The notes beneath the pieces are model-generated. The model did no database searches and was not told the origin of the DNA. It saw nothing but the letters and a program-made list of their open reading frames with translations. From Escherichia phage DK-13: 64,000 nucleotides of DNA. The stretch lies in the sequence record MT611523.1; one strand, given 5' to 3'. The position numbers and the translations under genes are program-made. This document shows positions 6,786 through 59,199 of the stretch, in pieces; position 1 is the first letter of the stretch, and every line of letters starts with the position of its first letter.

Positions 6786-6979
6786 AGGAAACCACGTTTA
6801 AATTCAACTTTACCATCATCACAACGGATTTCAATATTGAATTCTAAAGAATCATCATCGTGCATCATAAACGAGTGCACGACAACCTCGTCAAACACAC
6901 CCAGACCATACTTAAAATGTACATCATGGGCAATAACTTCGTCTAAAGTTTTGTTCGGTTTAATCCAACGGTTTAACAT
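6782..6979 (-). CDS. hypothetical protein (65 aa)
   Basis: ATG 6977-6979 preceded by class-A-type leader (TATCTCAACTACAGAGGAG). Confidence 0.4.
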   Translation of the reverse strand: MLNRWIKPNKTLDEVIAHDVHFKYGLGVFDEVVVHSFMMHDDDSLEFNIEIRCDDGKVEFKRGFL

Positions 6980-7050: not shown

Positions 7051-7055
7051 TATAA

Positions 7056-7289
7056 TTAAACTACTGGGGTAGGCGTAAACATCGCCGCGTTCTTAGTTCG
7101 CCAATCAGCTGCACTAGACGCTACGGTGACATAAGCGGCCTTTTCGGAAGGAAAAGTCTGATAGTGTGCATTAGCAATACGGTGCTCGTTCGAATAGATT
7201 TCAAACGGAACAGATACTTCAACACCTTTAACTTCAACACCTTCACCAGCTGGATGCGTAAAGGTTTTGATATTAACGAAACCACCCAT
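7056..7289 (-). CDS. soc: small outer capsid protein Soc
   Basis: 77 aa; GxVNIKTF ... AHYQTFPSEKAAY matches T4 Soc; canonical late promoter upstream. Confidence 0.85.
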   Translation of the reverse strand: MGGFVNIKTFTHPAGEGVEVKGVEVSVPFEIYSNEHRIANAHYQTFPSEKAAYVTVASSAADWRTKNAAMFTPTPVV

Positions 7290-46456: not shown

Positions 46457-46714
46457 TCATCTCATGCTCCTGTGCCAGCAATTTCGTGGCTCACGTTTAA
46501 AAATTTTGTCGTGCATTGATTGACAACCAACACAATATATCACACCTTTAATCGCTTGTCTCCGCGCTTCAGGAATTTTTTCGTCGCAGTCAAAACAGAA
46601 TTCAGCAGACTCCCTTTCAACTGCAACTTGTGCTCTCGCATGGGTGATAGCGGCTTGGACAACCGCTTCCATCTCTAACTGTTCAGCACCATCTTTTGCA
46701 AATCCAACAGCCAT
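46457..46714 (-). CDS. TraR/DksA-type C4 zinc-finger protein (85 aa)
   Basis: CFDC-x17-CVGC four-Cys motif near C-terminus. Confidence 0.45.
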   Translation of the reverse strand: MAVGFAKDGAEQLEMEAVVQAAITHARAQVAVERESAEFCFDCDEKIPEARRQAIKGVIYCVGCQSMHDKIFKREPRNCWHRSMR

Positions 46715-46896
46715 TATTCTTTCAACTCATTCAGATAAGCAATTAATTCTTCTTTAGAACTATTCAAATCACGCTTGCACTGCTCTATTCCAGAATATGA
46801 ATAACCTTCACAATATTCAACAGCCAGGTCATTAGCAGCATTTTCAATATGCCATGCGAGTTTAATAATTTTTTCAATTTGTTCAGTAGTTAACAT
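46714..46896 (-). CDS. hypothetical protein (60 aa)
   Basis: co-oriented ORF. Confidence 0.35.
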   Translation of the reverse strand: MLTTEQIEKIIKLAWHIENAANDLAVEYCEGYSYSGIEQCKRDLNSSKEELIAYLNELKE

Positions 46897-46900
46897 AATG

Positions 46901-47137
46901 TCACCAGTATTTGTTAATGGTAGAAATTAATTCTTGGACTTGAGTGGTCTTCAGCTTGCACCCACAACCCTTTAAGGTGTCTTTAAGGAGCCATGGTTCC
47001 TTGAGCTCATCCTTTTCCAGGCGGATTCTATATCCGCGGTAATCAGCAAATATGCTTCCGTCATCAAATATCTTAATTTCAAGAATATGATTATTGGTTT
47101 CATATTCCAATGAAACCATGGTATTTGTAAGTTTCAT
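46901..47137 (-). CDS. hypothetical protein (78 aa)
   Basis: co-oriented ORF. Confidence 0.4.
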   Translation of the reverse strand: MKLTNTMVSLEYETNNHILEIKIFDDGSIFADYRGYRIRLEKDELKEPWLLKDTLKGCGCKLKTTQVQELISTINKYW

Positions 47138-49045: not shown

Positions 49046-49231
49046 TTAAAGCGTATTCACATAAGCTATTAATTCGTTTTCTTTCGCATCAAATCGATTG
49101 GCAAATTCTTCCTGATGTTCGGCATCTATTGGACCGTATTCATCATAAAAGGCGTTTGCTTCTGTATGCTCATCCAAAAGCTCATGGATAAGCTCAAATA
49201 ATCTACTTTTCTGACTAATGCTTAAACTCAT
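49046..49231 (-). CDS. hypothetical acidic protein (61 aa)
   Basis: co-oriented ORF. Confidence 0.35.
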   Translation of the reverse strand: MSLSISQKSRLFELIHELLDEHTEANAFYDEYGPIDAEHQEEFANRFDAKENELIAYVNTL

Positions 49232-49434
49232 TTCGGTTCCCCATATCGCACAAATTTAGGATGTTCGCAATAACCAGAATGAAAACCTTCACCCTTATGA
49301 TTAGAACATCCTTTATTAGAACAGTACCACCAGTAATCAAATTCACATTCCATTTCATCGTTGCACAAAGCTGCGATTACTGGCCATTCACATTTTTCAC
49401 ATTTGGCCGTTTTAAGAATTCGGGCTTGGCTCAT
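49228..49434 (-). CDS. Cys-rich small protein (68 aa)
   Basis: multiple CxxC pairs (CEKCEWP...CNDEMEC...CSNKGC). Confidence 0.4.
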   Translation of the reverse strand: MSQARILKTAKCEKCEWPVIAALCNDEMECEFDYWWYCSNKGCSNHKGEGFHSGYCEHPKFVRYGEPK

Positions 49435-55569: not shown

Positions 55570-56150
55570 TTACGGCATTCCTCAATAAAAGAATTTAATG
55601 TATTTTTCTTAGCGATATCGTCGTATACCTTTTTAACTTTAGAAATACGAAAAGGTACTTCAATAGCCATAGTCCATAAAAATGATGCAATAAGACCTAA
55701 GATAGCGGCAGAAATCGCTGAAGCGAATACACAAATAGGCAGGTCGTTATCTGTTGTCAGGAAAAACCCTAGGAGTGGGAAAAATAATATCCCCATCCAA
55801 ACATAGAACCTAGAACTCACTAATTTGTCATATTCATCACTCCAGGTACGAAATCCATATTTCTTACTATAAGAAATTAATGGGTCGGGTGTCTGTTCTT
55901 TGAGTGGTTCCGGTTGATACCCATTAACAATATATCCCATTTTATATTCCTTAATTAAAAGCTCTTTCACATGACGATTACATCGCGACCAATCAACGTT
56001 TTCAACCTTGATTCCTTCATCACCATCATCAAGGTCCGCCCAATATCTTTTGGTAATCATAAATTCGTCTCTTGAGACAATAATTCCGGCATTTTCTGGG
56101 CGACGGATGAAGTTTACATCAACACCCATACAACCAGGTTCATACAGCAT
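55566..56150 (-). CDS. membrane protein (194 aa)
   Basis: co-oriented ORF; two C-terminal TM helices. Confidence 0.45.
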   Translation of the reverse strand: MLYEPGCMGVDVNFIRRPENAGIIVSRDEFMITKRYWADLDDGDEGIKVENVDWSRCNRHVKELLIKEYKMGYIVNGYQPEPLKEQTPDPLISYSKKYGFRTWSDEYDKLVSSRFYVWMGILFFPLLGFFLTTDNDLPICVFASAISAAILGLIASFLWTMAIEVPFRISKVKKVYDDIAKKNTLNSFIEECRK

Positions 56151-56836
56151 TACCAGCCCTCCATAGGGAATTCCAGATAAACTTGAGCATTAACGCGGAT
56201 TTCGTTTGTAATCTTTTTAACACGGTCAGTGTTACGAGATACACGACCAAACCAACGCCAACCGTTACTTACTGCGCGAGAACCTGTATGCCATGTCTGC
56301 CAATCAAACTGGAGCAACGTGCGGTCAGGAGCATCCCACTTGGTTAATTCATTGGACTCAATTTTTTCCAGAACTTCTTTATGCCACTGGCGATAGATAA
56401 GTTCGCCTTCAGGAATCTGACTAAATTGCGCAGTTCCGGTTGCAAAATAAGTAGGACACACATCAGCGTTAACAAGACCAAGAATATGTTCAGAATGGTA
56501 ACGAGGATTATCATAATCAGGTTGCCCTGCGGTAATAAAGTGTTGACCAACCGGAATATCCGGGCGTGGTACATCATCATGGTGATAACCTGGGATAGCG
56601 GGGTACCAACCAGGCATCAGCATATGAACCCGAGAATCAAATACAACCTGGTCGGTGTTCCAATCATCCGGCAGACTCATGATAAAGCTACGAGTAATAG
56701 GGCCACCATTGTCAAAAGCGAAAGCCAATGAGCTGTTAAAGAACATAGTTTCGTTTTTGATTTTATCATTAGAAATTTTACCAGCGAAACTGCCTACTGC
56801 ATGAGCTTGAGAATTAAAAGTTTTTGGACCGTTCAT
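56150..56836 (-). CDS. hypothetical protein (228 aa)
   Basis: ATG 56834-56836 after class-A-variant leader; His/Asp-rich patch YHHDD. Confidence 0.5.
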   Translation of the reverse strand: MNGPKTFNSQAHAVGSFAGKISNDKIKNETMFFNSSLAFAFDNGGPITRSFIMSLPDDWNTDQVVFDSRVHMLMPGWYPAIPGYHHDDVPRPDIPVGQHFITAGQPDYDNPRYHSEHILGLVNADVCPTYFATGTAQFSQIPEGELIYRQWHKEVLEKIESNELTKWDAPDRTLLQFDWQTWHTGSRAVSNGWRWFGRVSRNTDRVKKITNEIRVNAQVYLEFPMEGW

Positions 56837-57855: not shown

Positions 57856-57883
57856 AATATTTTCCTCATTAGTTGACGAGATA

Positions 57884-57912
57884 ATGATACTACGTTTCTT
57901 TAGACTTGTATA
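57884..57912 (-). promoter_or_regulatory. early promoter with class-A leader
   Basis: -35 TATACA (57907-57912), 17-nt spacer, -10 TATCAT, leader TCTCGTCAACTAATGAGGA. Confidence 0.45.
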
Positions 57913-57956
57913 CTAAATCTTGTACATAATTTTCTTATCACATCCTTGTGATTAAA

Positions 57957-58184
57957 TTATTTTCCTAACGAAATACGAGTAGGTTTTTTGCCAAAATATT
58001 CTTCATAAGAACCATCTAAACGACCCGCTTTAGACCGACAGTATGAATCGTACTTTTTGTAATAAGTCATCTCAGTATTATAACGCGGGTGTCTATCAGC
58101 CATAATAATACTTAATGGCCAACCTTTGGCATAATCGCGAAGACCATTTATTTTACTAATGTATCTTTTCTTTAATTTTAGCAT
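57957..58184 (-). CDS. hypothetical protein (75 aa)
   Basis: co-oriented ORF. Confidence 0.4.
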   Translation of the reverse strand: MLKLKKRYISKINGLRDYAKGWPLSIIMADRHPRYNTEMTYYKKYDSYCRSKAGRLDGSYEEYFGKKPTRISLGK

Positions 58185-58402
58185 GAGCTCGGGTACCAGA
58201 TTTTACCGTCGGCGCGGGCAACGAAGGTACGACCAGCTTCTTCGCCGTAACAAGAGCTATTCAGCCAATCTTCAAGACGAACTTCACCGTCATAATCATC
58301 TAGCTCAACACCAAAATCCTGAGCAGAAGCCATATCTTTTACTTTCTTATACAGGGCAGCCAGTTCAAGAGCAGCTTTTTCTAATTCGTTAATATCAGTC
58401 AT
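58178..58402 (-). CDS. hypothetical acidic protein (74 aa)
   Basis: co-oriented ORF. Confidence 0.4.
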   Translation of the reverse strand: MTDINELEKAALELAALYKKVKDMASAQDFGVELDDYDGEVRLEDWLNSSCYGEEAGRTFVARADGKIWYPSSC

Positions 58403-58411
58403 TTTTATTCC

Positions 58412-58624
58412 TTAGCATTCGTAAGAGGAGGACACCCAAGAGGTACCACTAATTGTAATACAACCATTATAAAGCGTAATATGTCGTTCTAGGTCACGAA
58501 CACCATCAATGTAGATATCAGCTTCTTCGCGTTCTTCTTTACAAATCTGGATAACGTTTTCAATAGCTGCCGCGGCAGTACGGATTGCACAATCTAATTC
58601 ACGAGACATATAATTCCTTAACAT
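58412..58624 (-). CDS. small protein, WVSSSxxC paralogue 1 (70 aa)
   Basis: C-terminus SWVSSSYEC shared with the two next ORFs. Confidence 0.45.
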   Translation of the reverse strand: MLRNYMSRELDCAIRTAAAAIENVIQICKEEREEADIYIDGVRDLERHITLYNGCITISGTSWVSSSYEC

Positions 58625-58899
58625 TCAGAAGAGGAGGACACCCAACCGCCATTTTCCAGGTCAGTTGTATAGTCATGAGTGTTAACAATAGCCCATTCAG
58701 GATGGCCATATTCTTCCCAATGGGCAAGGTCAGCTTTCAAGGCACCAAGAGAATAATAGTCACCGCCCATACCGCGAGCAGGGTATATATTAAAATGAGT
58801 CTCATATTTGTTTGCAATTTCCTCGGCACGCCGAATAGCTTTATGGATGTCATTTACTGCGTTAGCCAGTTCTTTATTTTTACGGTAATCATTCACCAT
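58618..58899 (-). CDS. small protein, WVSSSxxC paralogue 2 (93 aa)
   Basis: C-terminus GWVSSSSEC. Confidence 0.45.
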   Translation of the reverse strand: MVNDYRKNKELANAVNDIHKAIRRAEEIANKYETHFNIYPARGMGGDYYSLGALKADLAHWEEYGHPEWAIVNTHDYTTDLENGGWVSSSSEC

Positions 58900-58908
58900 A
58901 ACGTTTCC

Positions 58909-59199
58909 TTAGCACATTGCCGAAGAGGAGACCCAAGCACCAACTGTAACGACACCGTTTTCAACTTCACCGCCGTTGTTTTCAATTTCATCTTTAAACC
59001 ACTGGGAGCATTCATAACCGACAGGATAATATGTACGGCCTGAACCATAATCACCGGTACCGAATTGGATACCATATTCATCTGCGATTTCTTCGCAGTG
59101 TTTTTCAATTTCAGAGGTCTTATTTAGAAGAGAATAGATGGCTTTTTCTGCAGATTTCTCATCATAATACTTGGGGATAGCAATTTCAATTTTATTCAT
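58909..59199 (-). CDS. small protein, WVSSSxxC paralogue 3 (96 aa)
   Basis: C-terminus AWVSSSAMC. Confidence 0.45.
   Translation of the reverse strand: MNKIEIAIPKYYDEKSAEKAIYSLLNKTSEIEKHCEEIADEYGIQFGTGDYGSGRTYYPVGYECSQWFKDEIENNGGEVENGVVTVGAWVSSSAMC

Follow-up and report, generated by a model that had tools for sequence, protein, structure and literature searches.

Four consecutive genes in a 64,000-nucleotide (nt) stretch of Escherichia phage DK-13 (MT611523.1; the whole stretch is called the window below) encode small proteins with a common C-terminal peptide, the tail. Its pattern, G-x-W-x-[SAP]-S-S-x(0-3)-C, closes all four window proteins and about 165 of the 173 homologues that we retrieved, and the family that bears it is linked, across at least five phage lineages, to a gene for a protein with the domains DUF7277 and DUF7275. 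Its codons show that the tail is selected at the protein level, and not for the sake of DNA, RNA or a ribosome-binding site. Our preferred reading, held tentatively and a little short of even confidence, is that the tail family and the enzyme-like gene make up one module, the tail being a handle that the partner binds or modifies.

The tail and the proteins that carry it

The window comes from a T4-like coliphage (Gaprivervirus) and shares 99.5% identity with phage vB_EcoM_RZ. The array occupies a site of accessory genes between T4 e.2 and e.6, where every gene lies on the minus strand; its members, named types A, B, C and D in gene order, measure 96, 93, 65 and 74 amino acids (Table 1). Their junctions span 6-10 nt or overlap, and together they are a translationally coupled tandem array for four small cytoplasmic proteins. 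A sequence-only reading of this DNA had described three consecutive open reading frames (ORFs) of 70, 93 and 96 amino acids with the tail. All three exist and end as it said, but type D makes a fourth carrier. The lengths of 93 and 96 hold; the 70 counts from an upstream ATG at 58624. The alternative ATG at 58609 gives 65 residues (MSREL..) and is most likely the true start, since it sits after an AAGGA ribosome-binding site and the close type C homologues from our search are 65 residues long, with 67 or 70 annotated in a few GenBank records. Type D has a second, internal motif, DWLNSSC, and its orthologues in other genera keep both the terminal and the internal copy. The tail pattern is found in 4 of the 698 six-frame ORFs of at least 40 amino acids in the window, all four adjacent, against a mean of 0.08 matches after residue shuffling of the window ORFs; in 141 kb of T4, with 1187 ORFs, it does not occur.

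We collected homologues with a profile of 17 sequences run against 1.84 billion representative proteins (E ≤ 1e-3). The search returned 168 protein clusters, and nearly all alignments reach the last residue of the matched protein. Of the 173 proteins retrieved, about 155 have the ending G-x-W-x-[S/A/P]-S-S-x-x-C, and in about ten more it is longer by one residue; the remainder are truncated or unrelated. The tryptophan, the second serine and the cysteine are 100% conserved in an alignment of 171 sequences preselected for the tail, which also contains a second conserved motif, IAD..F..Y.G..G.TYYP.G. Altogether, the family signature consists of a long N-terminal helix, the loop AExIADxxG..F..YGxGxTYYPxG and the C-terminal G-x-W-x-S-S-(S)-x(0-3)-Cys. 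Homologues of type A retain the tail, and those of type B (P0008-P0017) retain GGW[VI]SSSxEC. The cysteine stands 1, 3 or 4 residues past Ser-Ser, yet it is almost always the final residue. A single natural variant with a terminal serine in its place was seen: the member from phage ZZ1 (L046 1036-1224; L numbers denote loci from other phages) ends in GEWSASSENS, matches the family hidden Markov model (HMM) with E 2.7e-13 and lies 1.4 kb upstream of a DUF7275 gene. A copy of type A in RB69 (P0032, RB69ORF139c-like, 71 amino acids; RB69 69855-70034, H64) stops after its YGSGRTYYP loop and is tailless, which suggests a decaying copy, though it is annotated as a gene.

The earlier reading had also noted that the 3′ DNA of the three ORFs is near-identical, and had left selection at the DNA, RNA or protein level as alternatives. 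The near-identity is true of the 93- and 65-residue genes, whose tail DNA agrees at 16 of 16 nt (TGGGTGTCCTCCTCTT), but not of the 96-residue gene, which departs from them at synonymous positions (GTC, TCT, TCG). Even the 16-nt identity is local: orthologues in other genera use other codons. Among 92 distinct tail DNAs, collected across 34 loci from other phages, serine is encoded by TCN 205 times and by AGY 66 times, a switch that requires two base changes; cysteine is TGC in 58 cases and TGT in 35, and the stop is TAA in 80, TAG in 7 and TGA in 5. A GG follows the tail in only 45 of the 92. Moreover, array-terminal genes that have stem-loops or a terminator instead of a downstream ribosome-binding site retain the tail (L003, L012, L013, L015, L016). 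Because the tail is kept with different codons, and also where no ribosome-binding site follows, selection acts at the protein level; codon switching and the lack of RNA structure at the junctions all but exclude the other two. A functional protein tail is thereby supported by its conservation in distant homologues, and the opposite case, conservation limited to the ribosome-binding site, clearly fails.

The junctions themselves follow the layout TGY-TAA-GGA-A-N4-6-ATG. The earlier reading took the conserved 3′ DNA to supply the ribosome-binding site of the next gene; that site is a TAAGGA that starts at the stop codon, not the tail codons. Folding of junction RNA is no better than that of shuffled sequence (z +2.0, +0.95, -0.5, -0.1), and the junctions have no Rfam match, no inverted repeats and no promoter or terminator matches. 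An RNA hairpin, or pairing of the tail's CCUCC with the ribosome-binding site, was rejected on the same folding, inverted-repeat and Rfam results. After the array-terminal genes of L012 (~6790-6830), L013 (~7052-7090) and L016 (~6816-6850), in three genera, we observed stem-loops that resemble one another, GGGTCATGTTATAGTGACCC being one of them, and have TGTTATAGT as their loop; they may be terminator/promoter elements like those of the PeSL cassettes discussed below.

The bodies of the proteins had been called unrelated. This has to be given up for at least three of the four, which are paralogues by PHROG 899, a family of unknown function; only the 65-residue body is without detectable similarity. 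The PHROG 899 HMM matches the full-length 96-, 93- and 74-residue proteins (E 3.7e-23, 4.4e-19 and 6.4e-10), as well as a fifth member, type E, of Shigella phage SP18 (E 3.5e-15), whereas type C matches phrog_4882 instead (E 3e-36). For types A and B, body kinship is read from these full-length matches. For the others the tails were cut off and the bodies compared with the family, profile to profile, by hhalign: type E reaches a probability of 95.6% (E 1.2e-8), type D 66% (E 5.6e-5), and type C an insignificant 6%. Types A, B and D thus appear as paralogues in one phage-only family. Type C has in common with the others only the last 15 or so residues (NGxITIxGxSWVSSS..C; the NGxITIxGxSWVSSS part is that of type A) and a helix-then-hairpin layout. 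No match to the small proteins was found in Pfam, NCBIfam or PADLOC, and N-terminally extended members of the family bring no informative domain.

A different paralogue family, ending in ..ELIAYLNEL.., is present in the window (46714-46926 and 49046-49255) and in T4 (tk.1 and tk.2; L008 11347-11756). It gives weak matches to the family HMM through its N-terminal helix and a YG..TYY-like segment and has no tail; this may reflect a distant relationship or mere helical bias. Among the names that GenBank records give to the small proteins are 'tail completion protein', 'major capsid protein' and 'group I intron endonuclease', evidently propagated annotation errors.

In Gaprivervirus, Dhakavirus-like, Mosigvirus, Marfavirus, Kanagawavirus and Muldoonvirus phages, the corresponding site has a tandem array of one to five members; 14 loci have five and 7 have three. 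The duplications are old, since subtypes are recognisably orthologous between phages. Aeromonas phages and a T4-like contig from an aquatic metagenome have a single copy; T4, over positions 1-90000 and 119000-168903, has no family member, just the weak similarity of tk.1, without a tail. Scanned with the pattern GxWVSSS[EAD][MQL]C, 185,579 genomes of bacteria and archaea yield no relative, and the viral matches, searched from type A only, all lie on contigs of T4-like size, mostly 100-173 kb, apart from two short fragments: by these searches the family is confined to phages. Type E (..GFWFNSSMSC) stands between types C and D in SP18 (L002 3518-3745) and in most relatives (L017-L025). It is missing from the window (compare 58403-58411), while relative L022 is without type C instead. 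Since TGCTAAGGnnATAAAATGACT junction repeats border the type E cassette in SP18, the repeat probably helps cassette loss. The N-terminus of type D in the window (MTDINELEK) resembles a chimera of the type E and type D starts.

The linked enzyme-like gene

Downstream of the array lies the gene for a protein of 319 amino acids, with DUF7277 at residues 2-101 and DUF7275 at residues 120-305. Searching with phmmer, we find a homologue of it downstream, on the same strand, wherever a family-anchored locus offers enough sequence, namely in the window, L001-L005, L011-L025 and L027-L042; L026 gives no enzyme match, its contig ending at the array. In the distant aquatic contig L003, only 56 nt separate the one tail gene from the DUF7277/DUF7275 gene that comes after it. 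Neither gene occurs in T4 over the two regions given above.

The association also holds from the other side. A tblastn search with the enzyme-like protein gives 731 phage records, from which 11 loci were sampled. All eight with a full-length enzyme (300-325 amino acids) have one or more family members at most 3 kb away on the same strand: Phapecoctavirus Ro121lw, Otagovirus phiPsa347, Otagovirus PPSC2, Menderavirus Ps15, the jumbo Mimasvirus XbC2, Shewanella phage Thanatos-1, Acinetobacter phage ZZ1 and a Tegunavirus. The flanking genes vary by lineage (gp41 helicase, nrdD, dexA with tRNAs, a Ser/Thr phosphatase, e.3/e.4), and the pair therefore moves as a unit. Record numbers for the two genes run in parallel by host genus: 197 versus 259 in Escherichia, 57 versus 59 in Aeromonas, 34 versus 36 in Enterobacter and 17 versus 18 in Shigella.

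In the N-terminal domain, residues G6, S7, D25 and D27 are invariant (VIGSRAL..x15..SDWDFIA) among 13 diverse homologues, with spacers of about 10-18 residues; an acidic residue on a later strand is conserved in most sequences. Nucleotidyltransferases of the Pol-beta type have the signature hG[GS] x9-13 D h [DE] h, which the protein fits at the level of the motif only. One GenBank record (H114) calls a homologue 'putative nucleotidyltransferase'. The C-terminal domain has as invariant residues K125, H128, R129, H174, D193-H194-D195, H198, E240-E241, E248-R249 and KVCTSITSGWFRE, a set that suggests a metal-dependent site.

Shorter DUF7275 homologues occur in a Streptomyces phage (L047 2878-3633) and a Gordonia phage (L048 2809-3600), with no tail genes nearby. 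The cysteine of KVCTSITSGWFRE, otherwise invariant, is isoleucine in these two (KKTITSFSKGWF, RRTITSLTKG) and may covary with the presence of Cys-ended partners. In both loci a gene for about 100 amino acids overlaps the stop codon of the enzyme and might encode a different partner.

Three further features surround the pair. The 75-residue phrog_7065 gene between the array and the enzyme-like gene begins with an ATG that overlaps the Cys codon and stop of type D; it is not core to the module, because it is confined to close relatives. In the 100-nt intergenic gap upstream of the DUF7275 gene (57856-57956), the minus strand matches a sigma-70-like promoter twice (57912-57884 and 57879-57851), and the gene may therefore be served by its own promoter in addition to read-through from the array. 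Downstream, a 228-residue phrog_1843 gene (56150-56836) is the second conserved neighbour, with 24 matches in enterobacterial T4-like phages and one Aeromonas phage, AS-szw. It did not turn up in the aquatic contig, nor in any of the eight enzyme-anchored loci checked, and for this reason is probably outside the core module.

Table 1 Features of the tail-gene array and its neighbours in the window.
Feature	Position	Strand	Description
Type A, 96 aa (amino acids)	58909..59199	-	ORF; ends ..GAWVSSSAMC; tail WVSSSAMC at 58912-58935, stop at 58909-58911
Type B, 93 aa	58618..58899	-	ORF; ends ..GGWVSSSSEC; tail WVSSSSEC at 58621-58644
Type C, 65 aa	58412..58609	-	Most likely start; ends ..TSWVSSSYEC; tail WVSSSYEC at 58415-58438
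Type D, 74 aa	58178..58402	-	Ends ..KIWYPSSC; terminal WYPSSC at 58181-58198, internal WLNSSC at 58250-58267
phrog_7065 gene, 75 aa	57957..58184	-	Between array and enzyme-like gene
DUF7277+DUF7275 protein, 319 aa	56896..57855	-	Pfam E 1e-26 and 1e-75; downstream of array
33-nt direct repeat (family D1)	58407..58439		Spans tail codons, stop codon and ribosome-binding site; further copies at 58613-58645 (91%) and 58904-58936 (70%)

Possible roles of the tail

According to the reading that we favour, the small-protein genes and the DUF7277/DUF7275 gene would be parts of one functional module. The tail would be a common handle by which a single enzyme-like partner docks onto each small protein or modifies it covalently, on the Ser-Ser hydroxyls or on the terminal thiol. 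One enzyme with several clients would account for up to five divergent bodies with one identical tail, and the bodies would have diversified so that, early in infection, different targets in the host or its defences are reached. A shared recognition is the simplest explanation, in that divergent bodies, including one without detectable similarity, keep an invariant tail. Modification, also among the proposals of the sequence-only reading, gains indirect support from the conserved linkage to this enzyme-like gene, which that reading had not noticed. As to its kind, nucleotidylation is the leading guess, because the partner's N-terminus has the hGS..DxD signature of Pol-beta-type nucleotidyltransferases. 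That DUF7277/DUF7275 installs an undescribed covalent group on the tail, for instance a nucleotide-derived one, and so turns up to five small proteins into carriers, covalent inhibitors or decoys directed at the host or at defence, is a more specific claim that we consider unlikely.

Several observations weigh against this reading or parts of it. HMMER profiles of the DUF7277/DUF7275 protein have no match in the PDB, and Pfam and NCBIfam give only the two DUFs for it. When it is compared by hhalign with the aminoglycoside nucleotidyltransferase AadA, the motifs pair as SDWDFIAD/SDIDLLVT at only 0.9% probability. One 3-kb contig (L010) has a family member and no enzyme gene, and none of the three short divergent enzyme homologues sampled (in Streptomyces, Gordonia and KVP40-like Vibrio phages) has a tail gene within 3 kb. 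One to three unrelated small genes separate array and enzyme gene in enterobacterial phages, and adjacency could reflect no more than co-transfer. Finally, the search profile included the tail, so that tail-bearing matches were favoured; among matches with E ≤ 1e-10, whose scores rest largely on the body, 15 of 17 bear it.

The strongest competitor, unlikely in our estimate though closer than any other, is a tail that acts alone: as a claw for a metal or anion formed by the terminal thiol, the carboxylate and two serine hydroxyls, as a plug that blocks a host or defence enzyme at its active site, or in a joint metal site built from the C-terminal cysteines of several subunits or paralogues. 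It agrees with the invariance of the tryptophan, the Ser-Ser pair and the cysteine on bodies that diverge. The family lacks a second conserved cysteine, so this one cannot join an intramolecular pair. Up to five co-translated paralogues could form hetero-oligomers, and the long N-terminal helix gives weak coiled-coil-like matches. The AlphaFold2 model of type A, of good overall quality (predicted local distance difference test score, pLDDT, 90.7), has a helix at residues 14-42, a small sheet whose last strand is 88-91 (AWVS), and a short helical turn at 92-95; the last six residues average a pLDDT of 76 against 96 in the preceding block, in keeping with an exposed end. However, an autonomous tail leaves the conserved linkage to DUF7277/DUF7275 unexplained and has no known target, the Ser-ended ZZ1 variant would be a poor metal ligand, and the variable spacing of Ser-Ser and cysteine argues against a fixed chelating geometry.

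The same model can be read in a purely structural way, with the tryptophan in the core of a very small domain, the serines capping the last helical turn and the cysteine packed on the helix. The placement of AWVS in the sheet, followed by the short helix, favours such a role, as does a half-conserved second W..S element on the preceding strand, suggestive of a Trp-Trp hairpin. We nevertheless regard it as improbable. Among clusters below 50% identity, packing alone would seldom keep a terminal cysteine and Ser-Ser 100% invariant, since alanine, valine or threonine would normally appear; a packed cysteine would not be expected to stay terminal despite a spacing of 1, 3 or 4; and type C retains the tail on a body without detectable similarity. 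More speculatively, the varying spacing, the Ser-ended variant and the low-confidence tip may fit a reactive and accessible end, as in the favoured reading, better than either packing or a fixed metal site, each point being weak by itself. No relative of the type A model was found among solved structures, and the model of type C is poor (pLDDT 58) and unsuited to comparison.

A degradation tag or a lipidation signal, both suggested by the sequence-only reading, is very improbable. A conserved C-terminal peptide on otherwise divergent proteins is what one would expect of either. Against lipidation, the small proteins have neither an N-terminal signal peptide nor a lipobox: their N-termini are hydrophilic and helical, and the conserved cysteine is the last residue. 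Against degradation, Trp-Val is a strand of the modelled folded domain, and to our knowledge the tail resembles neither ssrA-type (..LAA) nor MuA-type ClpX motifs, that is, it is unlike known bacterial C-terminal degrons; against both stands the lack of any Pfam, NCBIfam or PADLOC match.

Selection on the nucleic acid, as translational coupling or ribosome-binding site, mRNA hairpin or recombination site for cassette shuffling, is largely refuted and the sole rival so near exclusion: it can draw on the 33-nt repeat over ribosome-binding site, stop and tail at three junctions, on the stop codon overlapping TAAGGA and on a type E missing here and bordered by TGCTAAGGnnATAAAATGACT repeats in SP18, but it founders on TCN/AGY switching, on varied stops and third positions, on half of the 92 tail DNAs without a following ribosome-binding site and on the absence of RNA structure, inverted repeat or Rfam match at the junctions, so that any help of the repeat in cassette loss is a by-product and not the cause of conservation.

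Significance and relation to known systems

Sequenced phages with the gene pair number in the hundreds, with Escherichia, Klebsiella, Aeromonas, Acinetobacter, Pseudomonas and others as hosts; many of these phages are therapy candidates, and every copy is annotated 'hypothetical'. If the covalent modification is true, it would amount to an enzyme-plus-tag system of a new kind, spread over several lineages of large virulent phages that infect Gram-negative bacteria. The gene pair could bring to light a protein modification not yet described, or a new manner in which phages deploy families of small effectors. In addition, repeated junction DNA in the variable regions of T4-like phages can be the by-product of a conserved protein motif.

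The window proteins are HMM members of PHROG 899 and phrog_4882, which include RB69ORF139c, ORF064c of Aeromonas phage 31 and gp126-129 of JS98; a fold search with a window protein returns only these catalogued, uncharacterised phage proteins. In the sources and literature searched we found no description of the C-terminal signature or of its linkage to DUF7277/DUF7275, and in full-text literature no paper on the tail family or on DUF7277/DUF7275. Two known kinds of small protein were considered and set aside. Precursors of lanthipeptides and other ribosomally synthesized and post-translationally modified peptides (RiPPs) are short leader-core peptides, while type A is a folded domain by its model; over about 2.3 kb downstream and 1.9 kb upstream, none of the neighbouring genes has a RiPP-enzyme Pfam domain. 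Sulfur carriers of the ThiS/MoaD type have a ubiquitin-like fold ending in Gly-Gly, which is not the case here.

PeSL promoter/stem-loop cassettes mediate modular shuffling in the hyperplastic regions of T4-like phages (PMC4122927). As with these cassettes (PMC4122927), we see small accessory genes in a variable region, gained and lost at short repeated junctions. Unlike them, the repeat here is coding sequence plus ribosome-binding site, conserved as protein, and the array junctions have no intergenic stem-loop terminator and no early promoter, for which reason the array was rejected as a set of PeSL cassettes.

A second likeness is to proteins whose C-terminal cysteine forms a 'swinging arm' that carries covalent intermediates, such as HypE (..PRIC), SoxY (..GGCGG) and DsrC/TusE. 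In these, too, an invariant cysteine stands at or near the C-terminus, on the less ordered end of a small domain. The tail family differs by the lack of homology, by its motif (W-x-S-S-S) and by having no sulfur- or cyanide-transfer partner nearby.

A parallel in organisation is with nucleotidyltransferases that modify hydroxyls of small proteins: GlnD acting on PII, GlnE on glutamine synthetase, and the MNT-HEPN pairs. Here as there, an enzyme-like protein (hGS..DxD and a His/Asp-rich helical domain) forms a conserved gene pair with partners of about 65-100 amino acids, which have an invariant Ser and Cys in their terminal segment. No similarity in sequence or profile was detected. As acceptor, a Ser or Cys at the very C-terminal end would take the place of a Tyr in a loop; one enzyme would serve up to five paralogous clients; and the setting is that of a virulent phage. 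On these comparisons, a catalogued and so far uncharacterised family may be likened, together with its DUF7277/DUF7275 partner, to systems made of an enzyme and the tagged small proteins on which it acts.

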